Assembly: GCA_050250895.1 (NCBI GenBank)
Contig: JBFWNU010000006.1
Coordinates: 87,513-151,512 of the forward strand
Direction: 5' to 3'
Source of the DNA: Vulcanimicrobiota bacterium
Lineage (GTDB): Bacteria; Vulcanimicrobiota; Xenobia; Xenobiales; JADMJV01
Length of the DNA: 64,000 nucleotides
In this document: one piece after another, positions 36,260 to 60,324 of the stretch
How positions within the stretch are numbered: the first letter of the stretch is position 1
Layout: each line of letters begins with the position of its first letter
Notes under the pieces: model-generated
What the model was told of the DNA's origin: nothing
Databases searched by the model: none
Seen by the model: the letters and a program-made list of their open reading frames with translations, nothing else
Program-made: the position numbers and the translations under genes

Positions 36260-36703
36260 CTAGTTTTGGCTACCGGTCCGGCCGCGTTGGCGACGGTCGT
36301 CCTTGGTAGGGTTGGCGGCCAGTACACACAGCGAGCGCTTGTGCTGGCCGTCCATCAAGATTTCGACGCTGTAGGCGCCGGCGGTGGGAATCGACATCTG
36401 CTGCAGCGACACGGCCAGCGGCATGATGATGTTTTCGCCGGCGCGGCCAGAGGTGGCCTTGCGGCCGACCTGAAAGTCGGCGTTGACTTCCGCCAGGCGG
36501 CGGCCGTCTTCGTCGAGGAGCACGATGTTCATCGTGTGTTGCCGGTTGGCTTCGGTGGGATGAATCTCGAGCAGGATTGCCAGAGTCACGCCCATCTGAG
36601 CGGGAAACTTTTCCCGCCATAGGCGGTTGATACCCCCACCGAGCACGTGAAGCAGGCCCTCTCGTACGGTGGCATAGTCGCACAGCATGGCTTCAATTGT
36701 CAT
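36260..36703 (-). CDS. Hypothetical beta-rich protein (DUF6941-like)
   Basis: LCDYA..REGLLHVLGGG ... AGAYSVEILMDG pattern. Confidence 0.65.
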   Translation of the reverse strand: MTIEAMLCDYATVREGLLHVLGGGINRLWREKFPAQMGVTLAILLEIHPTEANRQHTMNIVLLDEDGRRLAEVNADFQVGRKATSGRAGENIIMPLAVSLQQMSIPTAGAYSVEILMDGQHKRSLCVLAANPTKDDRRQRGRTGSQN

Positions 36704-36784
36704 GGGACGGGCGTTCTTGACCTGGATCGCTTTTCCTTTCAGGCTGAGCGGGGATGCCAGCCGGATGTCCCGAACGGCCGGCCT

Positions 36785-39370
36785 ATGGATCTTCGCTGTG
36801 GCCAAAGGGTAGTCAACGAGGCCGAGCCGGCCCTGGGACTGGGCCAGGTCAAAGAGGTCGATCGGCGGCGGGTAGTGGTGGCCTTTCCGGCGGTTGACGA
36901 GTCGCGCGTCTATAGCCGCAACGAGGCCCCCCTACGGCGGCTGGTGCTCAGCCCCGGACAGACGGCGTGCGCGCGCGATGGACGTAAATTCCTGGTCGAG
37001 AGCCTGGCGGTCGAAGGGCACCTGGTCGTTTATCGCGGTCAGGGCACCAGCCTGAGCGAGACCGAGTTGGCCGACGACCCGCCGGCCATGGGGGCGATCG
37101 ACCACCTGCTCGCCTGCCAGCTGGCTCCCGATACCGATTTCGAATTGCGCCGCCGGGCCTGGGAATTGCGGGCTCGTATTCTGGGGTCGAGCTTGCGAGG
37201 ACTGATCGGTCCCAGGGTCGACCTGCTCAGCCACCAACTCTACGTGGCCTCGAAAGTGACGGCCATGGCCCGGCCGCGCGTCCTGTTGGCCGATGAAGTG
37301 GGATTGGGTAAGACGATCGAGGCTGGTCTGATCTTTAGTGCGCTGGCCGCCACCGGCCGGGCCAAAAGCGTGCTGGCACTGGTGCCAGAGCCCCTGATTC
37401 ACCAATGGCTGGCCGAGTTCTATCGGCGTTTTAACCTGCTTTTCGAGTTGTGGGACCCCGAACAGCCTGACCAGCAGCGGGTGCTCTGCCCGGCCGTCAG
37501 CCTGGAAGAGCTGCCCGAGCGTCAGTGGGATCTGGTGATCGTGGATGAGGCCCATCACCTGATGCACGAGCAGGCTCTGGTCGAGTTGAGCCAGCGCACT
37601 CGGGGATTGCTCTTGTTGACGGCCACTCCCAGTCGGTCGGGTTCGGCATCGTTGTTCGGATTGCTGCATCTGGTCGACCCTGAGCGCTTCGCCGACCAGT
37701 CCATCTTCGAGCGCGAACACGCCGACTTGCGGCGGGTGGCCGAACTGGCCGGCCAGGTCGAGGAAGCGGGTCTGCAGCAGGCTGGTTCGCAGCTGGTAGA
37801 GCTATTTCCCCGCGACCGGCAACTGGCCGAACTGGTAGCCCAGGGCGACGCCCGGGCCGTGCTCGAGGCACTCACGGATCGCCACGGTACCGGGCGAGTG
37901 CTGGTGCGCAATCGGCGCCCGCGGCTGGGCCACCTTTTCCCGGGGCGGCGGCTCGAAGCAGTCAAGACCCAGGACTCGTTTGCCTGGCTGTGCAGCTTCT
38001 TGCTCGGACATGAGCGCAAAGTCTTGCTGATCGTCAATTCGGCCGAAGCTGTGGGCCAGCTTTACCAACGGCTGCGCGAGCAGTTGCCGACCACCCTGGC
38101 TACCTTTCATGAGCACATGAGTTTGCTCGAGCGAGACCGCCAGGCGGCCTACTTTGCCGAACCCAACGGAGCCCAGATTCTGCTGGCCAGCGAGATCGGC
38201 AGCGAAGGGCGCAACTTCCAGTTCGCCTCGGACCTGGTGCTTTATGATTTGCCGTTGCATCCCGACTTGCTGGAACAGCGGATCGGGCGCCTCGACCGCA
38301 TCGGTCAGACTCGGGTCGTGACCATCCATGTGCCCTATCAGGATGAGCGTTTGCTGCGTTGGCATCGCGATGGGCTGGGCTCGTTTCAAGCAGCCGTGGC
38401 CGGGGGCGACAGGCTGGTACGGCGCTTTGGGGCGCAGCTGCAGGAAGTTTCCGAAGCCGAGTTCGAGCCGTGGCTCAGTGAGGTGCGCCAGGCCGCCCAG
38501 GCCGAGGCCCAACGGGCTCGTCAGAGTGAAGATGTGTTGATCGACCGTAACTCGTTTCGCGAAGAGCAAGGAGGGCAGCTGGTCGAAGCAGTGGCCGAGG
38601 CCGGCCAGGATCCGATGGTGGTCGAGGTGGTGCCCGACCTGTTGGAGCGTTTCGGAGTGGTGATGGAAGAACTCGAGCAGGGACTGTTCTCGATTCGGCC
38701 GGGCGAGATGATGTTCGTCGATTCCTTGCCCGGCCTGCCGCCCGAGGGCGTATTGGGAACCTTCGACCGGGCCCGGGCGCTGGTGCGCGAAGACCTCGAG
38801 TTTCTCAGTCGCGAGCATCCCATCGTGGCGGGCGGCCTCGAGTTGTTGCTCGACCAACCAGAGAGCCGGGCCATGGCCAGCCGCTGGCGGGGGGCTCCCG
38901 AGACCACGGTGTTGGTGCAGTTTCTCTTCGTGGTCGAAGCGGTGGGGCCGTCCTGGCTTGAGCTAGAGCGTTATCTGCCGCCCACGGTCAGCCTGGTCAG
39001 CTTCGACATGCAGACCCGACCCCGACCCGAACTCGAGATAGAGCTCGAGTCGGCACGCACCGAACGACTGGCTCCTGAAGTGGCCGCCAACCTGGTGGGA
39101 CGATTGGGACCGGTACTCGATCAGCTGAGCGGCAAAGCTCAGCAAGCGGCGGTCGACCGGGCTCGGCCGGGCCTCGAAGCCGGTCTGGCTCGGGCGCGCC
39201 GGTTGCTGGCCGCCGAGCTGGCTCGACTCCAGGCCCTGGCCGAAGTCAACCCGGGGGTGGGTCCAGCCGAGCTAGAGGCCATGAGTGAGCGGGGGCGAGA
39301 GACTCTAGCCAGGCTCGGGGCAGCCGGGCCTCGACTGGATGCCGTCAGGCTGGTTTTGCTCCAGCAGTGA
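36785..39370 (+). CDS. rapA: RapA/HepA-like SNF2-family ATPase
   Basis: LGLGQV, RVLLADEVGLGKTIEAG, DEAHHL, LLTATP, DRHGTGRVL, SEIGSEGRNFQFA, QRIGRLDRIGQ, LDAVRL. Confidence 0.9.
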   Translation: MDLRCGQRVVNEAEPALGLGQVKEVDRRRVVVAFPAVDESRVYSRNEAPLRRLVLSPGQTACARDGRKFLVESLAVEGHLVVYRGQGTSLSETELADDPPAMGAIDHLLACQLAPDTDFELRRRAWELRARILGSSLRGLIGPRVDLLSHQLYVASKVTAMARPRVLLADEVGLGKTIEAGLIFSALAATGRAKSVLALVPEPLIHQWLAEFYRRFNLLFELWDPEQPDQQRVLCPAVSLEELPERQWDLVIVDEAHHLMHEQALVELSQRTRGLLLLTATPSRSGSASLFGLLHLVDPERFADQSIFEREHADLRRVAELAGQVEEAGLQQAGSQLVELFPRDRQLAELVAQGDARAVLEALTDRHGTGRVLVRNRRPRLGHLFPGRRLEAVKTQDSFAWLCSFLLGHERKVLLIVNSAEAVGQLYQRLREQLPTTLATFHEHMSLLERDRQAAYFAEPNGAQILLASEIGSEGRNFQFASDLVLYDLPLHPDLLEQRIGRLDRIGQTRVVTIHVPYQDERLLRWHRDGLGSFQAAVAGGDRLVRRFGAQLQEVSEAEFEPWLSEVRQAAQAEAQRARQSEDVLIDRNSFREEQGGQLVEAVAEAGQDPMVVEVVPDLLERFGVVMEELEQGLFSIRPGEMMFVDSLPGLPPEGVLGTFDRARALVREDLEFLSREHPIVAGGLELLLDQPESRAMASRWRGAPETTVLVQFLFVVEAVGPSWLELERYLPPTVSLVSFDMQTRPRPELEIELESARTERLAPEVAANLVGRLGPVLDQLSGKAQQAAVDRARPGLEAGLARARRLLAAELARLQALAEVNPGVGPAELEAMSERGRETLARLGAAGPRLDAVRLVLLQQ

Positions 39371-40113: not shown

Positions 40114-41505
40114 CTACTGCTCTAATTGACGAGAGTGCCAGACCTGCAAGGTCTGGCCGGCCAGGCGGAGCGTGTCCTGGACGTAGGGGCGATTGCCGAC
40201 CCACTGAGCGAAGCCTTCTTTGAAATCCTCGCCCTTCTCGTCGTTGAGGTATTGGGCGAACTGGATAAGCAACAGATAGCGTTCGAGAAACTGATTGCTG
40301 CGGGCCAGCAAAGCATCTTGCTGGGTCGAATAGTGCGCCTTCGGGGGAGGGCGACGGTTGAGCACGGCCTGACGGAGGTTCTGCACGGCGGCGGCGCGCT
40401 CGATGGCCAGATCGGCGCGCTTGCGGAAGTTAGAGAAGCTTTCGAGGGCTTCGGCCAGATCGCTGACGCTATGGGCCTCTTGATGCAGGTGACTGCGCGA
40501 GCGAGCGGTGTCGAGCAGGTTGCTGGTGGGGGTGTGCATGGCTTGCTCAATGAGGTCGGCGATGGCCATGCCTGTGGTCGTGCGACCGCGACCGGCGTGA
40601 CAATTGAAGATGCGAGGCGTGTCCGGATCGACGTTCTTGAGGATGCTGACCAGCTGGTCGTAGTCTTGATACTCGGGGGTCTTTTCGTCGGAGACCGGCA
40701 CTCGATGGTACTCGACCTGGAATCCCTCATCGAGCATCTGTTGATAGACCTGGCGGGGAGTCTTGACGTCCTCAGGGTCGACTTTGACCCAGGATCTGGT
40801 CAGGTTCTCGTGGTTGTCTTCGTCATGGAGCAAGGCTTTGCCACCGGTCCGCTGGATCTCGTCGATGACTTCCTGGCGAAGGTTTTCTTCGAGTTCTTCG
40901 AGATCGCGGGGCGAGATGCCCGTGGCCTCGAGATTGCTCAGTGGATAGGCCGATTCGCGCAGGGTGAACGGCTTGCCCGCGATATAGACGACCGGCTCTT
41001 CGCGCAGGTTGATCCAGACGCAGGGGCGGCCGCCGGGACCCGCGTCGTTCTGGCGCAACACGGCTCGGATCCCGTTGATAGTGGGTTGAGCCACCCCGCG
41101 AATCTGGGAGCCGGCCAGCCCGCGATAGTTGGGGGCGCCACAGAGCAGCGGTTGGGCGCCCGCACCCATCTGCAGTTCGTCTTTGTGCAGGCCAGGATAC
41201 TGGTCGGTCTTGAGAATGCGATTGGGATTGAGGATGTCGCCCTTGCGGGTCAACTGGTCGCCAGCCATGAAGTAGGCGGCGGCCCCGACGGGATCGGCCG
41301 CCATCATGGCGTTGAGTTCGCTCAATAGTTCGCTGGCTCGAAAGCGGGCCGAGTTGGTCTCGCCGGGAGCGGGCAAGCTGCATTCGGCAGCCTGGCGGGT
41401 GAAGAGATCCTCGGGGATCTGCTCTTCAGGCTTGATGCGCTCGCGCGCCACGGCCTTGAAGCGCTTGGCTGCCTGAGCGATATGTCGTGGCGTAATCGGG
41501 TTCAA
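40114..41505 (-). CDS. Paladin-like protein-tyrosine/inositol phosphatase (CX5R)
   Basis: GAPNYR, GVAQPT, WINLREEPVVYI, YHRVPVSDEKTP, FNCHAGRGRTT, LERY..LI.F. Start uncertain. Confidence 0.82.
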   Translation of the reverse strand: MNPITPRHIAQAAKRFKAVARERIKPEEQIPEDLFTRQAAECSLPAPGETNSARFRASELLSELNAMMAADPVGAAAYFMAGDQLTRKGDILNPNRILKTDQYPGLHKDELQMGAGAQPLLCGAPNYRGLAGSQIRGVAQPTINGIRAVLRQNDAGPGGRPCVWINLREEPVVYIAGKPFTLRESAYPLSNLEATGISPRDLEELEENLRQEVIDEIQRTGGKALLHDEDNHENLTRSWVKVDPEDVKTPRQVYQQMLDEGFQVEYHRVPVSDEKTPEYQDYDQLVSILKNVDPDTPRIFNCHAGRGRTTTGMAIADLIEQAMHTPTSNLLDTARSRSHLHQEAHSVSDLAEALESFSNFRKRADLAIERAAAVQNLRQAVLNRRPPPKAHYSTQQDALLARSNQFLERYLLLIQFAQYLNDEKGEDFKEGFAQWVGNRPYVQDTLRLAGQTLQVWHSRQLEQ

Positions 41506-41617
41506 GTCGACAAAGTCCCACAAATCCCCACCGAAAGTATACCTCGAAATAGGTTGATTCCCTGTTGCTGAGATGTAAACATGCAGGGTCAAAGGGGGTC
41601 CAAACGAAGGTTTTGGT

Positions 41618-42847
41618 ATGAATGTACTGGTGCTCAACTGTGGTTCGTCCACGGTCAAGTTTCAGGTGGTCGAGACCGATCTCGACAAGATGGCAGCCGA
41701 CCAGGATCGCCGCCTGGCCCGGGGCCTGGTTGATCGTATCGGCGGTAAATCGATCTTGCGCTTTCAGGCCACCGGCCAGCCCGAGGTCAAGCTGGCTGAA
41801 CCCATTCGCGACCACGGCCAGGCCATCGACCGGGTCATCCGCTGGGTGGTTTCCGAGGACTCCCACATCGATTCCATCACCTCGGTTACCGACCTTCACG
41901 CGGTGGGCCATCGGGTGGTCCACGGGGGCGAGCGATTCAAAGCCTCGACTTTGATTACACCGGATGTCGAGGCAGGCATTTCCGAGTGCATCGAACTGGC
42001 TCCCCTGCACAACCCGGCCAATCTTAAGGGGATAGCGGCGGTCCGCAGGACATTGGGAGCCGGGGTGCCGCAGGTGGCTGTCTTCGATACGTCCTTCCAC
42101 ACTACCATGCCGGCCGAATCTTATCTCTACGCCATCCCTTATCCGCTCTATCGGCGCCACAAGCTTCGTCGCTATGGCTTTCACGGCACCTCGCATCGCT
42201 ACATCGCCTATCGCTACCGCAGATTGCGCGAACTCGAGAAAGAGCAGGTGCGCATCATCAGTCTGCACCTGGGTAACGGATGCTCGGCGTGCGCCGTGGT
42301 CGAGGGCAATTCGCTCGAGACCTCGATGGGTTTAACCCCTCTCGAGGGACTGGTGATGGGAACCCGTAGCGGGGACATCGATCCCTCGATTATCGATTTT
42401 CTGGTCGACGCCGAGGGACTGACGCCCCAACAGGTGGATACTCTGCTCAATAAGTCGTCGGGCCTGCTGGGTATTTCGGGGCTGACCGGGGATATGCGTG
42501 ACCTTTTGGCCGAACGCGAAGAGAACCTCGATCGCCGGGCCAGCCTGGCCATCAACATCTTCTGCAACCGCATCAAGAAATACATCGGAGCCTACCTGGC
42601 CCTGATGGGAGGCGCCCAGGCCCTGGTCTTCACCGGCGGCATCGGCGAGAATTCGGCCGTCATCCGCACGCAGATCCTCGACGGTCTAGAGTTTCTGGGG
42701 GTCGAGATCGACCAGAAATCCAACCAGGAGACGGTCGGCGGCAAGACCGGCCTGATTTCCACCGCCGACTCCCGGCTGGCAGCTTTCGTCATCCCCACCG
42801 ATGAAGAGTTGCTCATCGCCCGGGACACCGTTCGCTGCGTGAACTAG
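41618..42847 (+). CDS. ackA: Acetate kinase
   Basis: LNCGSS, GHRVVHGG, APLHN, FDTSFH, YGFHGTSH, HLGNG, GTRSGD, FTGGIGEN, IPTDEE. Confidence 0.97.
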   Translation: MNVLVLNCGSSTVKFQVVETDLDKMAADQDRRLARGLVDRIGGKSILRFQATGQPEVKLAEPIRDHGQAIDRVIRWVVSEDSHIDSITSVTDLHAVGHRVVHGGERFKASTLITPDVEAGISECIELAPLHNPANLKGIAAVRRTLGAGVPQVAVFDTSFHTTMPAESYLYAIPYPLYRRHKLRRYGFHGTSHRYIAYRYRRLRELEKEQVRIISLHLGNGCSACAVVEGNSLETSMGLTPLEGLVMGTRSGDIDPSIIDFLVDAEGLTPQQVDTLLNKSSGLLGISGLTGDMRDLLAEREENLDRRASLAINIFCNRIKKYIGAYLALMGGAQALVFTGGIGENSAVIRTQILDGLEFLGVEIDQKSNQETVGGKTGLISTADSRLAAFVIPTDEELLIARDTVRCVN

Positions 42848-43690: not shown

Positions 43691-45469
43691 TTAGCGACGC
43701 TCCAGACACAAGACGGTTACATCGTCGGCGGCATCGTGGCCGTCCGCGAAGCGATCGATTTCGGCGAACACCAGCCGCACGAGGTTGTCGGCATCGGGCC
43801 GCTCGGCCTGGGCCACCGCGGTCTGCAGCCGCTCGTCGCCGTAGAGGTCCCCCGAACCATCGCGGGCCTCGGTGACTCCGTCGGTGAAGGCGAACAGGAC
43901 CTGACCAGGGGTGAGGGTGAGGCCGCGTTCTTCGAACTCGACTCCGGTCACGATGCCCAGCGGCATGCCCGGGCACTCGGGCAGTTCGCGGACGCCGTCC
44001 TGGCCAATGAGCAAGGGGGGAGGATGGCCGGCCAGAGAATAGCGCAATTCGCCGGTGGTCACGTTGAAGACCCCATAGAAAGCTGTCAGAAACATATCCG
44101 AATCGTCATCCTGGCAGAGCCTTTGATTGACCCGGGCCAGGGTTTCGCTGGGGGTCTGGCCGCTCAGGCCAATGACTCGCAGGTGGGTTGCGCTGACCCC
44201 GACGTAAAGGGCGGCCGGAATGCCTTTGCCCGAGACATCTCCCACGAGCAGACCAAGATGCTGCTCGTCGATCCAGAAGAAGTCGAACAGGTCGCCACCC
44301 ACTTCGCGGGCCGGTTGGCTGCGGGCTGCCAGGGCAAAGCCTGAGCCGCGCGGCAGGTCGCGGGGCAGCAGGCTGCGCTGGAGGTCGGCCGCGACCTTAA
44401 GTTCGCTGGCCAGTCGCTCCTGTTTGGAGACCGATGAGCGCAGCTCGCGCACCAGCGCCTCGAACGAGCTTGCCATCTCGTCGACCTCGCGCGAGTGGCG
44501 CTCGACCGAGCGCTCGGCGGGCACATCGGCCTCGCCACGGGCGGCACGACTGACCAGCTGAGACAAGGTGGCGATGGGGGCGGCCAGCCGGCCGGCGGCG
44601 ATCCAGCTGACCCCGGCCAGCACCAGCAGGCCCAGGACCCCGATGATCGAGAGATCGGCGAGGGTTCGTTGCAGTTCAGCCATCTCTTCGCGGACGCCAT
44701 AGACGATGACGACCTCGAGCGGAGTTCCGGTGACCGGGTGAAAGATGAGCCAGGCCCGTCGCTGGTGGATCGGATCGGTGGCTTGGACCAGGGAGTGTTC
44801 GGCGGCGGATTCACGCTCGATGGCCACCAGCTGGTTGGCTACCGGACTCCCGCTGGAAGCCACCAGGTGCCCGGCCTTGCTAAGCAAAAGTCCGTAACGA
44901 CCAGGTTCGGACTTGATCGGCTCGAGTTCTTCGGCTAGCCCGTCGAGGCTCAGCCAGACCGTCAATACCCCCTGGGACTCTCCATCGAGATCGTTTAGTG
45001 GCAAAGAGAAAGCGGCCTCCCGGTCCTGGTTGACTTCAATCCAGCTGCCATGCGGCTGGACCGACGGCACTTCGGAGGCTTCGGTGAACACCACCTGGGC
45101 ATCTTTGAGGGTGCAGGTGATGGCCGTTCCCGAGTTCCACTGCACGGCAATCCGGTCCAGCTCTGGATTGGCCAGCGCCACCCCCTCGAGGTAGCGGGTC
45201 ATGGCCTCGGGACGCAGGGGGGCGTGACGCCCCAGATAGCTGCTGGCCAGACGGGCCGTGAGGGCCGCGCCGGCGAAGGTCCGCCCGACGCGTTCGGCAT
45301 AGTAGGCAACCTGATTCGAGGCGTCGCTTTCGAGCTTGTCCAACCAGCGGGCATGCAGTCGCCAGGCCCCAAAGGCCAGCAGAGCCATGAGCAACACGGC
45401 TGTGCTTCCGGTCAGGGCCACCACCATGCGGGCCCGCAGACGCGGTGTTCTCGGAGCAGAGTCAGCCAT
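43691..45469 (-). CDS. Membrane sensor PP2C/SpoIIE phosphatase (Cache-like + HAMP)
   Basis: Two TMs, HAMP, LQRSLLP, VGGDLFD, GDVSGKG, AGHPPP, TDGVTEA, DDVT. Confidence 0.92.
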   Translation of the reverse strand: MADSAPRTPRLRARMVVALTGSTAVLLMALLAFGAWRLHARWLDKLESDASNQVAYYAERVGRTFAGAALTARLASSYLGRHAPLRPEAMTRYLEGVALANPELDRIAVQWNSGTAITCTLKDAQVVFTEASEVPSVQPHGSWIEVNQDREAAFSLPLNDLDGESQGVLTVWLSLDGLAEELEPIKSEPGRYGLLLSKAGHLVASSGSPVANQLVAIERESAAEHSLVQATDPIHQRRAWLIFHPVTGTPLEVVIVYGVREEMAELQRTLADLSIIGVLGLLVLAGVSWIAAGRLAAPIATLSQLVSRAARGEADVPAERSVERHSREVDEMASSFEALVRELRSSVSKQERLASELKVAADLQRSLLPRDLPRGSGFALAARSQPAREVGGDLFDFFWIDEQHLGLLVGDVSGKGIPAALYVGVSATHLRVIGLSGQTPSETLARVNQRLCQDDDSDMFLTAFYGVFNVTTGELRYSLAGHPPPLLIGQDGVRELPECPGMPLGIVTGVEFEERGLTLTPGQVLFAFTDGVTEARDGSGDLYGDERLQTAVAQAERPDADNLVRLVFAEIDRFADGHDAADDVTVLCLERR

Positions 45470-48400
45470 CGGGATGGCTATCTAAAAGGGCTTCCAGAAA
45501 GGCTAGCTCGTGATGGTCTTCGACCTCTTCAAGGGCTTTGTTGATGGCCGTGTAGACCGAAGACACCAGCACCGGCACCATGCGAGCATCGCGGTCGAGG
45601 CCTTTGAGCACCTTTTTGACCAGGCCGTGGGCCGGATTGATCTCGGTGATGCCGGATTGCGGGCGATGATAGATGAAGTAGCGTTTGCCCAGCTGAAAGA
45701 ACCTGGTGGGTTCGCCCCAGCATAGTCCGGTCAGCAGTTCGGGCGGCAGTCCCAGTTCTGGATCGGCGCAGATTCGAGCGAACTCTCTGCGCAGGGCCTT
45801 GAGCAGTTTCTGTTCGGGAGGCTCCTGCTGGGGCTTTTCCAGCTTGTCCACGTGGCAGCCGAAAAGGTTCTGATAGTAGGACTCGGACAGCAATCCCCCC
45901 AGTTCGGCCACCACCTGTTCCTGGCCCGGGTCGTCGAGACCAGGGTCGGCCACCCTGAGTCGTCCGGTCTGCTGGACCACCTGATAGAGAGCGTCGAGGC
46001 TGGTCAGGCTATGACCGTTGGCAGGCAGAAAGTGGAGCCGGGTGAGCGGGCTGTGGCCGCCCAGTTCGAGTTGGCGCATGACCTTCGCGCGCTGGGCAGC
46101 GACATACCCGTAGAGATAGACCTGACCACGGCGAAATTCGGGCTCGTGGGGTTCGAGGGTGATCATGCATTCCGCCAGCATCTGATAAAGCTCATCGATC
46201 TCGCGCTCGAGCACCTCTTGCTCGGCCTCCGATAGGACCTCGCCGGGGATGTCCACCCAGCCGCTGACCCGGATCTCGGCGGGGTCGAATTCTCCGACCC
46301 GGCGGTCTTGCTGATAGATGACCACGGCGTTGGCGCCCGTGCGAGGCACGCACAGGTGTCCGGCCAGCCCCTCGCGTTTGAAAGACTTGCCGACCAGCTT
46401 CGGGGTCGCCAGTAAGAGGGATAGCTCTCGCTCGCGCTGGCTACGGGCCTGCTCGGCTGCCGGGGCGGGTGGGTCGGCGGACTCGGGCGGCTGGTCGCCA
46501 AAGATGGGCACGGCCACCGGTGGCGGCAAAGGGGCTGGCTCGTCGTTAGAGAGGACGGCCTCCTCGGCAGGTGCTTCAAGCACCTGGTGAAACTCGGCTT
46601 TGAGGCGATCGAGTTCAGCCTGCTCTTGTTCGGCGGTTTTCTGCTGCGGCATCGGCTCGAGCTGCTCGGCTCGGGCGGCGGCGGGCAACTGCGCCTGATG
46701 CTTGCGCTCGGCCATGCGGGGCTCTTCAAAACTGGCTTCGACCACTTCCTCGAGGCCAAAGATCTTCTCGAGCACTTGATGGCTGGCCGTGCTGGCGTCG
46801 AGAGCGTGGTCGTCGTCGCTCTTGGGGCCGCCGAAGGCGACCGTAACCGACCCGAATTCGGCTACCCAGCGGGCGATGTCGGCCAGGCTGACCCTGGCCT
46901 GCTGGCGGGTTTCGAAGAGCGGCGCCAGCCAGGACTTCTCGCCCAACACGGCCCGCGCCCGTTGCTGACGCACCTGGGAGTCGAGAGTGAGGCTGTCTCC
47001 TAGCGAACTCAGCAGCCAGCTCCAATAGCTCATCAGGTGCTCCCGGGCTCGAAAACGTCGAAGCTGGTGCTCGGTGTCCATAACTATTTGAGCCTCGAGG
47101 CCGGCGAAAAGTTCCGGAGCCATTTGCTCGATAGCCTGCAAGCCCATGCGCTCGAGCTGGGCCAGGCGAACGCTCGTCTGCGCGAACAGGCACCAGCCTC
47201 GAAACTGGCTCTCGACCCCCCGCTGCTCTTTGGCCGAGGCGTACACGACCCGACATACACCGTCGGGGTGCCGGTTGGGGATGCCGACCAGGAAGTGGAC
47301 CTTGCCGACGGCTGCTTGCGTCTGCAGTAAGAACGGAATGGACTCGGCCGTCTCGACTTGACCCCGTCGCCCCCCCCGGCTGGCGCGCACCAGATCGCCG
47401 TTGACGAAATGCACCTTCGGAAAGAGCTTGCGCAGAGTGCGCACCTGGCGTTCGCTCGGACACAACACCAGCCAATCCGAGGGGAGCTTGGCGTAAGGGA
47501 GCTTTTTGGTAGTGAGGCTCAGCTGGCCTTCCTTGTCGTATTCGAGCTTGATGTTGCGCAACGAGCGCAGTCGCCCCTTGAGGTCGGGAAAGATGCAAAT
47601 GTCGAGCAACTTCTGCAGATTGTCGGGGAGCGAGTCGATGTCTTCTAGATCGCGGGCACTGAGCCACTCGTCAAAGAAGGCGAGCAGATACGAGAACACG
47701 GTCTCGCGCTGGTAGGATGGGATGCGTCGCCGGCCCAGTTCTTGTGACAGCGAGAGCAACACGTCTTGCAGCTTGGTGATACAGGCGAAATAGGCTTCGT
47801 CTTCGACCACGTCCGACTGAGAGGCGTTCTTTCTTACCGATTCGCTCTCGACGATCATGGCCACCGGTGGATGGATGCGCTTCTCCCAGCGCCGACAGAC
47901 CTGGACTCCGTAGCGCAGAAAGGTCAGGCTGGTCTGCTCCAGTTGGCCATAGCCCAGACCGACCGCGCCTCGCACCTCTACGCTCTCGAAGCGGTGGTTG
48001 GGCCAGGGGGTGCCCATGTAGAGTGTGCTCTCAGAGCAGATATTGTTGCCGTTGAGGGTGAGAACGATACGGCAGTTGTGGCAGTGGGTCTGCAACAAGG
48101 CGACGTCTTTGCCGCCGGCTTCGACCTCGATTTCGAAGAAGTGGAACTTCTCGGGCGGGCTTTTGACCACTTGCTCCAACTGGTTGGTTTCCGCCGTCTT
48201 GCGCCACTGGAAGCCGTTACAATCCAGGCGGATGGCGGTGGGGTTCAGCGCCTGGCACGAGACGAGGCCGAGGGCTAGTTCACGCGTTCTGTCTTGAGCC
48301 CGATCGCGCCCGGACGAGAAGAGATGATCGTAGAGCGTCTCTAGTTCAAAGCGGTCGTAGCCGGGCCCGTTGAAATGGATTTTGAGCCGGTCCTCTCGCA

Positions 48401-48599
48401 GTTCGCGCCGTTCATAGTCAGCGTGAATCTCGGTGGCGCCGCTGGCGATGAAGCCCTGAATCAGCTGCAGAATATAGAAGTTTGGGTCGGGCAACTGAAA
48501 GCGCTTGAGTTTCTCTTTGGCCTTGTCCATAGCCAGCGAGAAGGAAGCCTTGCGTTCTTCCACCGCGCCTTCGGTGATAAGCTCTTCTAAGAAACTCAT
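45462..48599 (-). CDS. Large Hsp90/GHKL-like protein with degenerate ATPase motifs
   Basis: FYILQLIQGFIASGA and FNGPG in place of the N-box and G1 box; C-terminal EINPAHGLV. Resembles the adjacent gene. Confidence 0.7.
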   Translation of the reverse strand: MSFLEELITEGAVEERKASFSLAMDKAKEKLKRFQLPDPNFYILQLIQGFIASGATEIHADYERRELREDRLKIHFNGPGYDRFELETLYDHLFSSGRDRAQDRTRELALGLVSCQALNPTAIRLDCNGFQWRKTAETNQLEQVVKSPPEKFHFFEIEVEAGGKDVALLQTHCHNCRIVLTLNGNNICSESTLYMGTPWPNHRFESVEVRGAVGLGYGQLEQTSLTFLRYGVQVCRRWEKRIHPPVAMIVESESVRKNASQSDVVEDEAYFACITKLQDVLLSLSQELGRRRIPSYQRETVFSYLLAFFDEWLSARDLEDIDSLPDNLQKLLDICIFPDLKGRLRSLRNIKLEYDKEGQLSLTTKKLPYAKLPSDWLVLCPSERQVRTLRKLFPKVHFVNGDLVRASRGGRRGQVETAESIPFLLQTQAAVGKVHFLVGIPNRHPDGVCRVVYASAKEQRGVESQFRGWCLFAQTSVRLAQLERMGLQAIEQMAPELFAGLEAQIVMDTEHQLRRFRAREHLMSYWSWLLSSLGDSLTLDSQVRQQRARAVLGEKSWLAPLFETRQQARVSLADIARWVAEFGSVTVAFGGPKSDDDHALDASTASHQVLEKIFGLEEVVEASFEEPRMAERKHQAQLPAAARAEQLEPMPQQKTAEQEQAELDRLKAEFHQVLEAPAEEAVLSNDEPAPLPPPVAVPIFGDQPPESADPPAPAAEQARSQRERELSLLLATPKLVGKSFKREGLAGHLCVPRTGANAVVIYQQDRRVGEFDPAEIRVSGWVDIPGEVLSEAEQEVLEREIDELYQMLAECMITLEPHEPEFRRGQVYLYGYVAAQRAKVMRQLELGGHSPLTRLHFLPANGHSLTSLDALYQVVQQTGRLRVADPGLDDPGQEQVVAELGGLLSESYYQNLFGCHVDKLEKPQQEPPEQKLLKALRREFARICADPELGLPPELLTGLCWGEPTRFFQLGKRYFIYHRPQSGITEINPAHGLVKKVLKGLDRDARMVPVLVSSVYTAINKALEEVEDHHELAFLEALLDSHPDG

Positions 48600-50161
48600 G
48601 CTTTGATCGACATCGCCCTCTCGGCTATCCTGGCTTCGACCTTGTCAGGCAAGCCATCTTGCAACAGAGCCGCCTTAGCCAGCACGAAAGCGGCCAGCAA
48701 AGGACTGTGTTCAGCCTGGGCCAGGGCTTTCTTGACCAGGGGATGACGGCGATTGTAGAGCAACACTCCTGGAATCACCTGCAAGCGACTCCAGAAGCCA
48801 CGCTCGAACAAGCGGACGGGCTCGCCCAGGTGTCGCTGGACCAGGCACGGTCGATCCGAGATGGTCGAGCCTTCATAGTCGAAGTCGGCCAACTGCACCT
48901 TCATGACCGAGGCTTTGCCGCGTCGCAGCATGGCCACCACATTCCAACCGATCTTGCGCAGCGTGGGTGGGGCGTCGAGCGGTACGGGGGTGGCTACACT
49001 AGCGCAGGCCGAGCGCGCCGGCCGGCCGCAGACCGCCTCGAGACCGGCCGCCAGACTGGTGTCGACACTGGTCCAGAAGACGGGGATTCCCTCTTCATGG
49101 AGTCGTTTGCTGACCTCGGTCGGGCGCGAGTCGACATACACGCACTCTTCGGATTGGGCGGCGGCGCGAGCTTGTTGAATCGACTGAGGAGGTCCATGCA
49201 GCACGGGAAAGAGAGGTAACTCGGCAAAGGAGGAGGGGAAGTAGTCTCGCCAGCGGCTGAGCGCTGCCCCCGCACTGGCCATGAGATGACTGAGTTCGGC
49301 GGCCGTCTCGGGATAGTTCCTGAGCAACTCCATCACCTGTTTTTGGAAGGCGGCGCTGAGATCTTCGCGGATGACCCTGGCCAGCAGCTTCATGGCTTTG
49401 TGATAGTTTTCGTCTTCGAGCACGTTGTCGCGGGTGAGGGTGTGTTCGAGGTAGCGCGACTTGATCTTGAAAGTGACCCCAGGAAACTGCTCCTGGTAGC
49501 CGACTTTGAGGGTCAGGCCCTGATTGTACATCGCGAAGGCGGGTTGCAGCGAACTGGTGTAGCCGGCCACCACCTCGGTGCCCTGGCCTTCATAGTAGAA
49601 CTGGCAGGGCGAGTCTACCCGAAGCTTTTCGTTGATGACTTCGCCGTTGAAGGTGATCTCGTTCTCTGAGTGACAGCACCAGAACTTGATCGTCTCGAGC
49701 GACCGACGTTCGAACTCGGCCAGATCCTGGGGCCGAATTCTCTTGTAGACCCGGATCGAGGTTCCCTCGATGGGCATCTCGAGTCGTAAGATGCGAAAGT
49801 CGGTGGTGCCGTCGAAGGCTACCCGATAAAACTCGCCTTCACGACCCGTGTCCACCAACACCAACTCAGGCACGATGGCGAAGACCGACACGAAGCCGAT
49901 GCCGAACTTGCCGATCTTGGTGAAATCGTTCTCTTTGGTGGATGAAAAGAGGCGGGTCAATTTGGATACGATCACGTCCAGGGTCATACCCTCGCCCGTG
50001 TCCGCCACGGTGGCCAATACCATCTTCTGGTCTTCTAGCCAGTCGACGGTGACATCGACTCGGCCCGAGCCTGCATCCATGGCGTTTTGAATGAGTTCGC
50101 GGTAGAAGGTGAAGGGGTCGCTGAATTGGCCCACCAGGTTTTCGAAGACATCTTCGATCAT
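48596..50161 (-). CDS. Hsp90/HtpG-like GHKL ATPase
   Basis: FYRELIQNAMDA, DTGEGM, SSTK, IGKFGIGFVSVF, GT; LTRD loop; C-terminal YNRRHPLV. Confidence 0.88.
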   Translation of the reverse strand: MIEDVFENLVGQFSDPFTFYRELIQNAMDAGSGRVDVTVDWLEDQKMVLATVADTGEGMTLDVIVSKLTRLFSSTKENDFTKIGKFGIGFVSVFAIVPELVLVDTGREGEFYRVAFDGTTDFRILRLEMPIEGTSIRVYKRIRPQDLAEFERRSLETIKFWCCHSENEITFNGEVINEKLRVDSPCQFYYEGQGTEVVAGYTSSLQPAFAMYNQGLTLKVGYQEQFPGVTFKIKSRYLEHTLTRDNVLEDENYHKAMKLLARVIREDLSAAFQKQVMELLRNYPETAAELSHLMASAGAALSRWRDYFPSSFAELPLFPVLHGPPQSIQQARAAAQSEECVYVDSRPTEVSKRLHEEGIPVFWTSVDTSLAAGLEAVCGRPARSACASVATPVPLDAPPTLRKIGWNVVAMLRRGKASVMKVQLADFDYEGSTISDRPCLVQRHLGEPVRLFERGFWSRLQVIPGVLLYNRRHPLVKKALAQAEHSPLLAAFVLAKAALLQDGLPDKVEARIAERAMSIKA

Positions 50162-55686: not shown

Positions 55687-58600
55687 CTACTCGCCGTCGG
55701 CGGACTTTTCGTCTAGCTCGCTGTCGGTCTTTTTCGAACCCGGCTTGGCCTTCTTGTCGATAGGGATGAAGTAGCCGGATTTCTTCGTGGCCGGTGCGCC
55801 GGTGCCGCCGGCGGTCTTGCGGCTGGCTGGTTTCTGCAACGGTAGCAGATTGCGCCAACCGGTCAGCCGTTTGCCTCGGCGGGCCTCTCCGCTCTCTTCA
55901 CCCGAATCCTCGGATTCGTCGTCGGTCTCTTTCTTGGACTTGGATTCTTCGCCCGAGAGCAAGCGGATTTTCTTGATCTTCTTCTCGAGCCGCTCAGCGA
56001 TCGACGAGGCCCGGCTGGGCGGGGCCGAGGGTGCGACCTCGCCCTCTTCGCCAGCCGAGACGCCCCATTCGCGTAGGAGTTCTTCGGCTCGGGCGATGAC
56101 CCGCTGGCGCAATTCTTCGCCGCGACTTTCCTCTTCGGGCGCCTCCCCCGGATCAGGCGGCTCGAGCTCGAGTTCTTCGATCCGATCGAGCACTCTGGCG
56201 ATCGTCTTCTCGGGGTCGAGATAGTAGCCAGAGGCCCGCGCGCGGAGGAACTTCCAACCCAGTCGTTCGAGCACGGCTTCGCGCTCGAGCTCTTGCGAGA
56301 GCCGCTCGGGAGGGTGTTCGTTAGCGCCGTCGCAGGTGATGGCCACGCGTCCGCCCCGGCCCTCGACCACCAGGTCGATGCGATAGTTACCGACGACATG
56401 GTTGGTCTTGACGCGATAGCCGGCTTTCTCGAGAGCCCGGCGCAGGCGAATCTGGTAGCGGTACTCAGGATCGTCGTCGTCGATGGAGCGCTCGACCACG
56501 GTAGCCTCGCTCAAAGCGGCCATGGTCTTCCTGGGATCTTGCATATGCTCGATCAGGTTGCGGCGCAGGTCGCCTTCTTTGAGATCGGTCACCGGATCCA
56601 GGGAATAGACCACCCACATCTGGTCCTTAGCCCGACTGGCGGCCACATTGAAGCGCTTGGTGAAGACATCGGTGGTGCGCAACGGTAGGGGACCGTCGCT
56701 GGCTGTTTCGACCACCGACAGAAAGATCACGTCGCGCTCGTCACCCTGAAACTGGGCCGCGTTCCCGCAGACGATGCGGCGTTCTTGATATTCGGTCAGT
56801 TCGAGATGCTTGGTCAACAGCCGCTCTACGGCCAGGGCCTGCTCTTCGCCCACCAGGCTGATGACGCCCATGGTTGCGCCTTCATATTCGGGTTGTTCGC
56901 AAGCCGCCACCACCAGGGCGGCAATGGTCTGAGCCTCGACCTTGTTGACCTTCTTTTCGTAGTTGGCTTCGGGCACACGGTAAGGCACGGTGGGCGGCTT
57001 GATCAACACCTGGGTGCCCTCGCGCAACGGCTGAATCTCGCCCTGATAGCAGAGGTGGTTGCTAAAGGCGATGATCTCTTCCACGCAGCGAAAGTGCTCG
57101 AGCAGTCGAATGGTACCGCCGAAGGATTGGCGGGCCAGATCGTAGACCGAGGTGCGACCGTCATAAAGTTCGCGATTGGGGATCCCGGCCAGGAATTCGT
57201 CGATCATGGCCTCGATGGCGGCAAAAGACAGACCCACCGCTTCGGGGCTGACCTGCTCATGATCACCGACCACCAGCACTTCCTTGCCCAGGGCAAAGGC
57301 CAGCAGGCCGGTCACGTCACACTGGCTGGCCTCGTCGAGAATCACCACGTCGAACATCGACTCGCCGGGGTGATAGCTCTCGGCCAGGCGCGAGAGCGGC
57401 ATGATCCAGACGGGCACCGCATCCCGACAGTCGGCAAGTTTCTCGCGGGCCATGGCCTTGAGCCGGGGGGCTCGCTTGCCCTTGCCGGAACCGATCTTGC
57501 GCATCAGGTCGAGCCAGCCCACCAGCGCCTGCTGCTGGCGCACGCCGGTCCGACGCAGCTGGTTGGCCCACGTCTTGTTCTCGACATAGTGGGCCGTGGC
57601 CGTGCGCAACTGGGTTTTGAGGCGCAAAATCTCTTGTTGCAGTTCGTCGAAATGAACCTTGTGGCGAACGGCCAGTTGTTGTTTCCACTGGATGTGCTTC
57701 CAGGCTTTGTCGACCTCGCCGGGCGGGTGAGCCTCGTTGTGGGGTTCGCTGTGGGCACGCAGGGCGTCGGCCCACTCCGAGGCCACCGCCTCGACCTGGC
57801 CTAACAACTCGTTGCGGCGCTCGACGGTCTCTTGCAGCGAATAGAGCTGAGACATCCAGTTCCAGGCCCGGGCATACTCCTCGACATCCAGGTTGGCGGT
57901 GGCGGTGCGCAGCTTCTCGAGGATGCTGCCGGCTTCGCCACCAGTGAAGCCCATCAGCTTCTGCTCTTGCTCTCGGATCCTGGTGTCGATGGATTTGAGT
58001 TCGAGGGCTGCCTCGCGGGCTTTGAGGGCCGGCTTGAGTTGCCAGTCGATGGCTTCGCGAATGCGCAAGAAATCGCCGTACAGACTGGGATTGGCGGCCA
58101 CCTTCTCTTCGATCGCCTCCCAGCGCAGGCCGGCCGACTTGAGGGTCTCATGGAACGGGGCCCAGATTTTGCGTTCCCAGTCGAGGGCATCGCGCATGGG
58201 TTGACAATACTGCAGGCACACCTGCTCGGGCTGCTCGCCCATCTGGTCGAATCCGGGCGCCCCCTTGGGCACCATCTGTCGTTCCCAGCGGGTCTTGAGA
58301 GCATCCCGTTCGGCCTTGATCTCGAGATAGCTGACCACCGCCGCGATGTCATCAGGAGTCTTGGGGCTGCTCCCGTTGACGATGGCTGAAGAGAGGAAGG
58401 TCTTCCAGTGGCGACGCTTGACCTCTAGTTCGAGCCAGCCAATGTCTTTCTGAGCCTTGAGATGTTCGAGAATCTCGTTGGCGGTCCGCAAAAGGATGGG
58501 GACCGGCGTATCGGACTTGACCTCGGCCCCGCTCGAGAGCACTTTGGCTTCGTTACTTGAAATCGACTTGGCCGAAGTTTCGATGGCCCGCACCAGGTCT

Positions 58601-60324
58601 TCCCAGGTCTCTTGATGGGTGCCGCCCAGCCGGCCCACGCGCATACACTCCAGGGCCCAGTCGCGGCCCTCTTCGGCCACCGACACGGCCACCCGCTCGG
58701 CGGCTTCGCGCAAAGTCGCGAGCTGCTCGAGGGTCTGGTCGTCTCGCTCCCAATAATCGCGGCCAAAGTCGGGATCGGCGTCTCGCAATTCTTCGCGCTT
58801 GGCCAACAGTTTGCGGAAGTCGCCTTCGGTGAGCAAGTCTTCGAGGGCCGGCAGCGAGGTCTCGAGGTCTTCTTCGAGGGCGGCCGGAACCTCGCGATTG
58901 AGTTGATACAGCTCTTCGAACTCTTCGCTGGTGAGGGGCAGGGGAGCCTCGTTTTCCACCGGACCGGGAATCCAGTCGTGAGTCCCCACACCCTTGGCGA
59001 CCAACTTGGCGGCCCGGGCCGGATGAATGCCGTCGTCTCCGACGATCAACTCGCGGTACTCGTCGTGGCGAGCCTCGAGCAACTCTTTCTGGGCCTCGGC
59101 CAAGCGAGCCTCCAGGGCTTGGCGGCGGTCGTAGTAGGTCTGGGCCAGTTTGTCGAGCTCGTCGATATCGCTGGTGGTGAACCGGGCCACGATGCCTTTG
59201 ACCGCTTGCTCGAGCTGGCGTCGGCTCTCTTGCTCTTGATCCAGCACGCTCACGCACAAGGGTCGCAACTCGGGAATGACCATGTCGCGCACCACGCGCA
59301 GGGCCTTGGAGGCATGGCTGGTGACCAGGATGCTCTTGCCCTGAGCCAGCAGATGGCCAATCAGGTTGGCGATGGTGTGGGTCTTGCCGGTTCCGGGTGG
59401 ACCCTGGACCAGCACGCAAGAACTTTCCTCTAGCCGACGCGCCACCCGCTCTTGCTCGGGGTTGCTCGGCATGGTCATCAGCAGGTCGCTGGTCTCGCTC
59501 TGTTTCTTGGAGGGGGTTTCGATGCCCACCACCCGCAACAAGGAGTGAGGGAACGTCTCGAGCTTGGGAATGGCGTCGAGATAAGCGTCGATAGCCTGCG
59601 AGAACCCCAGCGAGCGCGTGCCCAGGTAGAGGATGGGATCGCGGATAAGTTTCACGGTTTTGGCGGCGCGCTCGTTACCGCTGGGCTCTTCGATGAACTT
59701 GCCATCAGACCAGAGTTTCTCTTGAAGCCGACGCAAGAACTCGGTCGTCTCGGGGCCACCCAGGGGATGGCAGGCGGCCTCTTGCAGCTCGGCCCGGGCC
59801 TCGGAGATGCTGGGTTCGTCGACATCGCACCATCGCATCAAAGGCGAGTAGAGGAACGGCTCGCGGTCGGTCTCGCGGACCGTGAACTCGGGCACGGCCG
59901 GATCGAACTCGAGCGAGAGTGTTTGCAGCAAGACGGGGTGGTCGACGGCGCCTTGCGGGGCGTTCCAGAGGACCTGGCCTTCACCCAGCATGAGTTCGAC
60001 CTTCTCGGACTCACGCTCCATCGTCTGCCACAGTTCGAGAAACTGTTCGAACAACTTGTTGGCCGCCCCGGACTCGTCTTCAGGCTTGCGAACCTTGAGG
60101 ATGTAGTCGTCACCGAGCACCTCGCCGTCTTCGGTGGGCGGCAGGATCTCGCCGCGGGTGACCTCGTTGAGATCGGGCACGTCGGCCAGACGCAACTGCC
60201 AGGAGTAAGCCTTGAGCTGAACCTTGGGAGGAGTCTTCAGTTTCTGGAGCTCGGCTAAATAACGGAAGAGGCTCTGGATCCTGGTTCTCGCAAGGTTCGT
60301 ATCGACTGTAGACGGCATTACCAC
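55687..60324 (-). CDS. SF1 (Upf1/DNA2-like) helicase with a C-terminal Vsr/REase-like domain
   Basis: QGPPGTGKT, LDEASQ, VGDHEQ, EHFRC, FQGDERD, RFNVAASRA; tail YRIDLVV...TCDG...LERLGWKF. Confidence 0.9.
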   Translation of the reverse strand: MVMPSTVDTNLARTRIQSLFRYLAELQKLKTPPKVQLKAYSWQLRLADVPDLNEVTRGEILPPTEDGEVLGDDYILKVRKPEDESGAANKLFEQFLELWQTMERESEKVELMLGEGQVLWNAPQGAVDHPVLLQTLSLEFDPAVPEFTVRETDREPFLYSPLMRWCDVDEPSISEARAELQEAACHPLGGPETTEFLRRLQEKLWSDGKFIEEPSGNERAAKTVKLIRDPILYLGTRSLGFSQAIDAYLDAIPKLETFPHSLLRVVGIETPSKKQSETSDLLMTMPSNPEQERVARRLEESSCVLVQGPPGTGKTHTIANLIGHLLAQGKSILVTSHASKALRVVRDMVIPELRPLCVSVLDQEQESRRQLEQAVKGIVARFTTSDIDELDKLAQTYYDRRQALEARLAEAQKELLEARHDEYRELIVGDDGIHPARAAKLVAKGVGTHDWIPGPVENEAPLPLTSEEFEELYQLNREVPAALEEDLETSLPALEDLLTEGDFRKLLAKREELRDADPDFGRDYWERDDQTLEQLATLREAAERVAVSVAEEGRDWALECMRVGRLGGTHQETWEDLVRAIETSAKSISSNEAKVLSSGAEVKSDTPVPILLRTANEILEHLKAQKDIGWLELEVKRRHWKTFLSSAIVNGSSPKTPDDIAAVVSYLEIKAERDALKTRWERQMVPKGAPGFDQMGEQPEQVCLQYCQPMRDALDWERKIWAPFHETLKSAGLRWEAIEEKVAANPSLYGDFLRIREAIDWQLKPALKAREAALELKSIDTRIREQEQKLMGFTGGEAGSILEKLRTATANLDVEEYARAWNWMSQLYSLQETVERRNELLGQVEAVASEWADALRAHSEPHNEAHPPGEVDKAWKHIQWKQQLAVRHKVHFDELQQEILRLKTQLRTATAHYVENKTWANQLRRTGVRQQQALVGWLDLMRKIGSGKGKRAPRLKAMAREKLADCRDAVPVWIMPLSRLAESYHPGESMFDVVILDEASQCDVTGLLAFALGKEVLVVGDHEQVSPEAVGLSFAAIEAMIDEFLAGIPNRELYDGRTSVYDLARQSFGGTIRLLEHFRCVEEIIAFSNHLCYQGEIQPLREGTQVLIKPPTVPYRVPEANYEKKVNKVEAQTIAALVVAACEQPEYEGATMGVISLVGEEQALAVERLLTKHLELTEYQERRIVCGNAAQFQGDERDVIFLSVVETASDGPLPLRTTDVFTKRFNVAASRAKDQMWVVYSLDPVTDLKEGDLRRNLIEHMQDPRKTMAALSEATVVERSIDDDDPEYRYQIRLRRALEKAGYRVKTNHVVGNYRIDLVVEGRGGRVAITCDGANEHPPERLSQELEREAVLERLGWKFLRARASGYYLDPEKTIARVLDRIEELELEPPDPGEAPEEESRGEELRQRVIARAEELLREWGVSAGEEGEVAPSAPPSRASSIAERLEKKIKKIRLLSGEESKSKKETDDESEDSGEESGEARRGKRLTGWRNLLPLQKPASRKTAGGTGAPATKKSGYFIPIDKKAKPGSKKTDSELDEKSADGE

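Follow-up and report, generated by a model that had tools for sequence, protein, structure and literature searches.

A conserved pair of intact-looking and catalytically degenerate Hsp90-like genes in a Vulcanimicrobiota bacterium: a candidate one-motor clamp

In this work, we analyzed two adjoining Hsp90-like genes, A and B, and the PP2C phosphatase gene that follows them in a window of 64,000 nucleotides (positions 87,513 to 151,512 of contig JBFWNU010000006.1, assembly GCA_050250895.1), which comes from a Vulcanimicrobiota bacterium with a genome of 9.5 Mb and about 7600 predicted genes. The closest homologs of the proteins of this locus carry source labels that are mostly Eremiobacterota, Vulcanimicrobiota or Xenobia. 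A first-pass annotation, made from the letters and their translations, had read the locus as an active and a dead Hsp90-like subunit encoded upstream of a sensor phosphatase. Its three minus-strand open reading frames (ORFs) of 521, 1045 and 592 amino acids (aa) lie where it had placed them (Table 1), A overlaps B by 4 bp (ATGA), B overlaps the phosphatase gene by 8 bp, and all 13 motifs that it quoted were located in the translations. A scan of the locus for promoters and terminators gave no signal above that of shuffled sequences. The results described below indicate that A and B constitute a real, conserved and apparently undescribed variant of the Hsp90 clamp, and that the phosphatase is a neighbor of the pair.

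Table 1. Position of the genes and domains of the A/B locus within the window
Feature	Coordinates	Strand	Remarks
Gene A, Hsp90-like ATPase, catalytic motifs intact	48596..50161	-	521 aa; N-terminal, middle and C-terminal domains (N-M-C); begins within helix 1, without the N-terminal swap strand
A, N domain, residues 1-178	49628..50161	-	N-box E22/N26/D29; G1 D54-G56-G58; lid G84-F86-G87-G89; T134
A, middle domain, residues 180-392	48986..49624	-	Catalytic loop E239-D245, including R244
A, C-terminal (predicted dimerization) domain, residues 393-521	48599..48985	-	Match to the C-terminal domain (CTD) of HtpG, 1sf8
Gene B, catalytically degenerate Hsp90-like	45462..48599	-	1045 aa; N-M-M-M-C; 4-bp overlap with A
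B, predicted swap strand (F20) and helix 1, residues 11-36	48492..48569	-	Characteristic of the dead family; modelled with low confidence in the monomer
B, pseudo-ATPase N domain, residues 37-185	48045..48491	-	Q45, G49, A52, N77, R106 and A109 in catalytic positions
B, middle domain repeat 1 (M1), residues 190-412	47364..48032	-	Catalytic Arg replaced by Q261
B, middle domain repeat 2 (M2), residues 418-640	46680..47348	-	Profile comparison
B, acidic/Pro linker, residues 641-717	46449..46679	-	pLDDT <50 at 676-717
B, middle domain repeat 3 (M3), residues 718-925	45825..46448	-	Match to the HtpG middle domain, 2gq0
B, C-terminal domain, residues 925-1045	45465..45827	-	Conserved motif specific to the dead class; low confidence in the monomer model
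Sensor PP2C/SpoIIE phosphatase	43691..45469	-	Real gene, neighbor; not a conserved part of the system

The structural model of A, obtained from a 120-sequence alignment with a predicted local distance difference test score (pLDDT) of 91.5, matched Hsp90 proteins over its full length, with GRP94 as the top structural match (Z 19.9, root-mean-square deviation (rmsd) 7.9, 418 aligned residues), followed by TRAP1 (Z 19.8, rmsd 10.7, 436 aligned); MORC2 scored below both (Z 15.5). The best Foldseek match of the model had an E-value of 7e-22 and the listed rows were Hsp90-family entries. By domain, residues 175-386 matched the HtpG middle domain 2gq0 (Z 7.1, rmsd 6.9, 196 aligned), residues 398-518 matched the HtpG CTD 1sf8 (Z 7.4, rmsd 5.1, 105 aligned), and in a profile search the alignment of its C-terminal part to Hsp90-beta extended as far as the EINP motif. 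As modelled, A is a complete N-M-C Hsp90 fold. The first-pass annotation had credited A with complete GHKL motifs and a middle-domain Arg, and these residues are present: the N-box, G1, lid and Thr residues of the N domain and the catalytic loop with R244 show no variation among the 120 aligned homologs, for which reason A looks catalytically active. Nevertheless, A is not an ordinary HtpG. It scored far below the cut-offs of the curated Hsp90/HtpG models NF003555 (39.8 against 371 bits) and NF010683 (41.8 against 455 bits), a scan with PF00183 found in this genome a separate htpG gene alone, located on another contig, and HtpG is present in 35 of the 37 genomes of the class. The Pfam matches of A (HATPase_c_3, E 4e-10; HATPase_c; SACS) are confined to its first 100 residues, and a sequence search with the A4 profile against solved structures gave a best E-value of 0.13, to an unrelated entry.

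The relatives of A were collected as 160 loci, namely the best 80 genome and the best 80 metagenome loci, which are top-ranked and partly overlapping sets; residue counts refer to the 52 pairs of an A-type and a dead-type gene in the genome set. The GHKL N-domain residues are retained in 51 to 52 of these 52 coupled actives. In Hsp90, a first strand with a conserved Phe is exchanged between the protomers. The A protein starts at about HtpG residue 13, beyond this Phe, which divides the strand from helix 1 (PMC4381864), and the swap-strand motif, even in a looser form, was found at none of the 52 active N-termini.

Protein B gave zero matches in Pfam and NCBIfam scans. It is homologous to A: BLASTP aligned the two at 19% identity over 268 aa (E 3e-4), and their N domains, compared profile to profile, matched at 96.9% (E 2e-10). 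The model of B (pLDDT 73.5, from a 13-sequence alignment) matched GRP94 over residues 1-414 (Z 16.1, rmsd 7.9, 377 aligned), as well as TRAP1, and the HtpG middle domain 2gq0 over residues 719-922 (Z 9.8, rmsd 4.5, 194 aligned). Comparison of the B repeats by hhalign related M2 to M3 (95.5%, E 1e-8), M1 to M2 (66%, E 6e-5) and M1 to M3 (25%, E 8e-4), and the A middle domain to M1, M2 and M3 (93, 74 and 85%), with four unrelated control domains all at or below 0.4%. The motif that had been noted three times in B therefore marks three middle-domain repeats, and the acidic/Pro linker noted together with it is present as well. The CTD of B matched that of A (64%, E 6e-5) and is, by this comparison, of Hsp90 type, an assignment made from sequence profiles only because the model confidence there is low. 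Altogether, B is predicted to have an N-M-M-M-C Hsp90 fold, by model for its N and M domains and by profiles for its C domain. Its relatives can be as long as about 3000 residues and contain as many as ten matched stretches, and therefore the number of repeats varies. Residues 1-34 (pLDDT <50) and 961-1045 of the model are of low confidence, which may be compatible with folding of these ends on a partner, the shallow alignment being an alternative cause.

The loss of catalytic residues in B was also examined across its relatives. The A residues E22, N26, D29, D54, G84, G87 and R244 align with Q45, G49, A52, N77, R106, A109 and Q261 of B. Among the 52 coupled partners, (i) the Mg-binding Asn, the N-box Asp and the middle-domain Arg are each found in none, (ii) the second lid Gly remains in one, (iii) Arg replaces the first lid Gly in 50, and (iv) the catalytic Glu is kept in 22 and the G1 Asp in 40. 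B has thus lost its catalytic residues as proposed; across the partners the losses of Asn, N-box Asp and Arg are universal, whereas that of the G1 Asp is peculiar to this B. The pocket of the dead partners looks rebuilt rather than decayed. The N-terminal segment ahead of this pocket is conserved, with F20 in 46 and A27 in 52 of the 52 partners. We take A27 to correspond to yeast Leu15, in the core of the N-terminal dimer, by a gapless count from the catalytic Glu with the yeast residue numbered E33. In yeast Hsp90, according to the consulted part of PMC2702006, the L15A substitution raises the ATPase activity to 157%.

The pair is coupled well beyond this genome. A dead gene lies directly downstream of the A-type gene in 102 of the 160 loci, from several phyla: 52 of the 80 genome loci (none in 25, at an edge in 2, upstream only in 1) and 50 of the 80 metagenome loci (none in 8, at an edge in 21, upstream in 1). 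The same holds for 53 of 65 loci in a phylum sample of 201 genomes centered on a record of the myxobacterium Nannocystis, 42 of which contain A; this set, too, is top-ranked and overlaps the others in part. The coupled pair is present in the Nannocystis record L101. Record titles include Myxococcales, Bradymonadales, Elusimicrobia and Planctomycetota, the 4-bp overlap recurs in 24 of the 52 pairs, and some loci bear tandem arrays of two to five dead genes. Within the class, A-type and dead-type matches occur in an identical set of 24 of the 37 genomes, the 13 genomes with neither type having 1.9-3.5 Mb, and the A-B locus is found in 13 of 13 genomes of the family, where the genes upstream of A encode YceI and Hpt and ackA is found downstream of B. 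In a tree rooted with the HtpG of this genome (FastTree, 230 columns, fragments and weak matches excluded, 19 of 51 paired loci included), the 22 active sequences group in a clade with short branches (support 0.99) and the 100 dead ones in a single long-branched clade (0.79), with the operon-coupled partners as a subclade (0.98). The expectation that the two genes co-occur and stay together is thus borne out across phyla. Two proteins, P0136 (7 members) and P0137, are fusions of a complete A with a complete dead partner; the fusions P0135 and P0138 were set aside, as their A halves look frameshifted at the end, and 90 further loci yielded no fused form. Another fusion, P0140, links an A-type ATPase to a transglutaminase-like domain. 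The genome studied here contains a second coupled pair (L003:6375-12001, that is, G000:C1:3256375-3262001) whose dead partner has about 1370 aa. Covariation between A and B was also computed: by mutual information (89 pairs, uncontrolled), B residues 5-28 took part in 16 of the top 30 inter-protein pairs, and by regularized couplings (156 pairs, effective number of sequences 127), nine of the top 30 pairs involved B residues 1-36, compared with seven in each of two phylogeny-preserving controls, and these figures were given no weight for or against binding.

Dead-type genes are numerous in the genome itself. A profile built solely from partners in other genomes, with zero matches in a control of reversed ORFs, detected 89 ORFs at E<0.001, of which 85 are dead-type (B among them), three are actives and one is HtpG; an iterated search gave a set of 87 dead ORFs, 84 of them of at least 300 aa. 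In the 82 that could be aligned, the Asn and the N-box Asp are absent and the Glu is present in 2. Most are scattered singletons (12 of 79 neighboring pairs are less than 10 kb apart) with a median identity of 29% to their best paralog. Fifty-six have 300-470 aa and do not extend far beyond the first middle subdomain, and 21 of these end in a hydrophobic stretch; overall, the tails vary between TPRs, hydrophobic hairpins, a kinase and middle-domain repeats, with TPRs in 11 and a kinase domain in 1 of 40 scanned. The swap-strand motif occurs in 58 of the 87 dead ORFs, and its G/S/G/F columns (87-96%), together with helix 1, are the best-conserved part of the dead paralogs. A complementarity is therefore apparent between the strand and helix 1 best kept in the dead copies and the strand missing from the actives. 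Each of the 13 family genomes has at least 44-53 matches, scoring having been capped at 48 candidates, compared with 4-10 in five genomes of other phyla. Clear orthologs, defined by a best match scoring at least twice the second, were found for 17 of 29 sampled loci in a genome of the same genus and for 4 of 28 in one of another genus, and they are 35-63% identical, versus 72% for AckA and 75% for A. We read these figures as turnover of the dead repertoire. In the same-genus genome G004 (loci L291-L320), many dead copies have short frames or internal stops and may be pseudogenes or assembly errors. In representative proteins, the dead-family profile matches 5406 entries at E<=0.001, active relatives included, and no Pfam or NCBIfam model covers the family.

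Hsp90s are homodimers. Taken together, these results point towards a different arrangement, in which A and B form a heterodimeric Hsp90-type clamp with a single ATP site and a dead subunit that selects the client, a reading to which we assign a probability of roughly 0.55. A alone is predicted to bind and hydrolyze ATP, and B would provide the second arm and the choice of client. The two subunits would be joined through their class-specific C-terminal domains; ATP binding to A would close the N domains, the B strand (F20) and helix 1 would dock on the strand-less A, and this docking would license hydrolysis at the single site, the three middle domains of B serving as an extended client-binding arm. 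The approximately 80 further dead paralogs, mostly devoid of a CTD, would use the same N-terminal segment to dock on the three actives, and different clients or locations would be supplied by their tails (TPR, membrane hairpin or kinase). The whole would be a modular, client-specific protein-remodelling machine working alongside the ordinary HtpG. The extension to the entire family, with three ATP motors shared by about 85 dead adaptors that each complete a clamp by donating a swapped N-terminal strand, and with an adaptor set that is expanded and quickly remodelled in the large-genome members of the class, is a more speculative proposal that we hold as possible rather than probable; because there are about 85 dead and three intact copies, a small number of motors would be shared by many interchangeable partners.

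In the portion of PMC5550277 available to us, engineered Hsp90 heterodimers retain an active wild-type site beside a subunit unable to bind ATP, and closure and turnover are also seen with the TRAP1 +/R402A heterodimer. B, for which no ATP binding at all is predicted, would by analogy resemble these permissive cases more than the stalled one described next. Several observations weigh against the A-B clamp and its shared use. According to the same part of PMC5550277, TRAP1 with one E115A subunit stalls closed, and therefore a one-site cycle would need an additional release step. Removal of the first strand of yeast Hsp90 increases both ATPase activity and N-terminal dimerization (PMC4381864, as far as its text was available), so that the strand missing from A is compatible with A:A homodimers. 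In the fusions P0136 and P0137 only about 10 residues separate the C-terminus of A from the N-terminus of B, a linker probably too short for an intramolecular parallel clamp. The B-type CTD is found in only 3 to 5 dead-type ORFs of the genome, one of them stand-alone. The 24 out of 24 co-occurrence reflects few events because kin genomes are not independent. Besides, 33 of the 160 loci lack an adjacent dead gene despite sufficient flank, many of them showing an active clade gene followed by DUF6941, and therefore A-type proteins can be encoded alone. DUF6941 was detected in 24 of the 160 loci, nearly all without a dead neighbor. The genome has its own orphan-clade DUF6941 gene (L020:9360-9743; G000:C1:2002360-2002740), and the window holds a further one (36260-36805, minus strand, E 3e-21) 7 kb from the A/B pair. 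The stand-alone B-type CTD gene (L002:5868-6536; G000:C2:487868-488536; E 3e-18) encodes a protein that could cap A or serve the paralogs without CTD.

Some of these observations would also suit other arrangements. The diversified dead copies might instead switch an A homodimer on or off within a sensor-helper network for signaling or immunity, in the manner of paired immune receptors, with the hairpin tails or downstream partners as effectors. The lineage-specific rise to about 85 copies, the fast turnover of the dead loci, the TPR tails and the hydrophobic ends of the short copies would all fit, and other Hsp90-like proteins have been proposed as anti-phage in the available part of the Tiamat preprint (10.64898/2026.09.30.754977). 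However, the A-B locus keeps its YceI/Hpt and ackA neighbors across the family, no full-length match was found among phages or plasmids, the PADLOC matches span the ATP-binding stretch only, the 40 dead ORFs scanned contain no nuclease, HD or phosphoesterase domain, and no defence family recurs near the dead ORFs, the largest neighbor cluster (given without a computed background) being two-component-like. We therefore consider this network unlikely, and of the options listed in the first-pass annotation the defence module, in its classical form, is weakly disfavored by the stable chromosomal position and the absence of full-length phage or plasmid matches. A smaller chance is given to the idea that N-M1 of the dead proteins is a loading tag read by A for folding, inserting or exporting the tail, the paralogs being clients. 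Trafficked effectors usually come as dispersed single genes whose head is conserved and whose tails vary, most dead copies lack the C-terminal dimerization domain, and A is preceded by a TelA-like coiled-coil gene in 22 of the 160 loci and by an AAA+ gene in 26, all of which would agree with such cargo; yet the operon-coupled partners retain a full CTD and repeated middle domains across phyla, as subunits would, no small immunity-like neighbor recurs (ORFs of at least 80 aa), and the 40 scanned tails match no toxin family.

The orphan active genes, the agreement of first-strand loss with homodimer closure in the consulted text of PMC4381864 and the fusion geometry unsuited to a single-chain clamp would all be accommodated if A were a stand-alone homodimeric Hsp90 paralog, with B and the other dead copies as independent scaffolds or self-assemblers of the same pathway and no mixed clamp. 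We regard this as quite unlikely, since it explains neither the swap strand and helix 1 best kept in the dead copies and absent from the active ones nor the tight gene overlap kept across phyla. The least probable explanation, largely refuted by the comparative data, is a signaling machine of three genes, with the PP2C phosphatase downstream serviced by the clamp. The phosphatase has a SpoIIE/PP2C domain (E 5e-51), with dCache and HAMP matches below cut-off. Its 8-bp overlap with B on the same strand makes co-transcription plausible here. Nevertheless, PP2C was found in none of the 160 loci, though in 55 of the 102 coupled ones the sequence continues for 1.5 kb or more beyond the dead gene, no ortholog at E<=1e-60 was detected in 16 relatives, and in a relative (L069) ackA follows B directly. 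The link of the Hsp90-like pair to the phosphatase that had been proposed for this locus is thus not upheld, and PP2C was discarded as a third component.

With respect to the surroundings, two tandem YciI genes (43628 down to 42844, minus strand) lie between B and ackA in the window. Because the relatives keep the order YceI/Hpt-A-B-ackA without the phosphatase, the latter and the two YciI genes look like a recent insertion before ackA, into an old and vertically inherited locus. Convergent with ackA is a gene for a 514-aa PTP-like phytase/phosphatase (40114-41658, minus strand; PF14566, E 4e-51). On the other side of the pair, at 55687-60324 (minus strand), a 1545-aa protein combines an SF1 helicase (AAA_11/AAA_12) with an MTES_1575-type restriction-endonuclease domain and is possibly defence-related. 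In other loci, three genes adjoin A-type genes, encoding a TelA-like coiled coil (a candidate label), a 359-aa protein and an AAA+ ATPase, found in 22, 30 and 26 of the 160 loci, respectively, across phyla. They form a unit directly upstream of an A-type gene in L070:4116-7963; the same unit in the genome studied here (G000:C1:2618143-2623278) is far from any A gene. This unit may be the rest of the system.

Our literature search, from which subscription journals were largely absent, found no description of a pair of the A/B type, in agreement with the first-pass statement that no characterized system was known to match. The main text of PMC7159879 mentions neither HSP90 nor GHKL, and the accessible part of PMC1525184 only mentions uncharacterized HSP90-like outgroup proteins. 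Among known systems, the Hsp90 family (HtpG, TRAP1, GRP94, Hsp82/Hsp90-beta) is the closest: A shares with it the N-M-C organization, the GHKL motifs, the Arg loop and an EINPxH-like motif ahead of the C-terminal helices. A differs from these proteins by its 10-19% identity in structural alignments, its missing first strand and its coupling to a dead paralog with repeated middle domains, of which class of dead copies there are about 85 here.

Tiamat (TmtA) and sacsin resemble A in combining GHKL with an Arg-bearing transducer, and weak SACS and TmtA matches were obtained over residues 7-100. These matches, however, cover fewer than 100 of 1063-1782 profile positions, and A has Hsp90-type small-middle and C domains in place of the DUF3684/TPR-like core and C-terminal PD-(D/E)xK nuclease of Tiamat or the tandem repeats of sacsin; membership of A in this group was discarded, the matches being limited to the ATP-binding stretch. 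A separate Tiamat-like gene is present in the genome (C1:34712). The Tiamat preprint, in the part available, describes a different architecture without mention of a heterodimer, and cites putative anti-phage Hsp90-like proteins fused at the N-terminus to a domain of the HD or the calcineurin-like/phosphoesterase kind (Nicastro et al. 2023). As far as that text describes them, these share with A and B an Hsp90-like core and fast-evolving modular C-terminal parts. In contrast, the first domain of A is the ATPase and B opens with the swap strand, neither having a fused N-terminal effector by Pfam, and diversification here takes place in separate, catalytically dead genes. The MutL, MORC and topoisomerase clamps share the N domain and transducer with A (Z 12-15.5), but their matches mostly end near residues 270-380 of A whereas Hsp90 matches reach the C-terminus, and neither A nor B has a DNA-handling domain or neighbor. 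Unequal heterodimers such as eukaryotic MutL-alpha offer an analogy.

The relation of the two ATP sites of Hsp90, and of its asymmetry, to client remodelling is an open question, so far approached with engineered one-site heterodimers. A natural and widespread one-site clamp, if true, would allow a direct test of which protomer hydrolyzes and how the clamp reopens. If the dead copies are adaptors, bacteria would have derived client-selection subunits from Hsp90 itself, and it is tempting to speculate on a combinatorial client selection within one chaperone fold, as eukaryotes obtain from co-chaperones. The engineered Hsp90 and TRAP1 heterodimers (+/E115A, +/R402A), as described in the consulted part of PMC5550277, likewise pair a competent with an impaired protomer, and B carries natural equivalents of their losses. 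Those are laboratory constructs of a homodimer, whereas here the asymmetry would be natural and the pocket rebuilt. What the present analysis of the locus and its relatives adds is the ratio of about 85 dead to 3 active copies, the complementarity of the swap strand, the class-wide co-occurrence of both types and the exclusion of the phosphatase from the pair.

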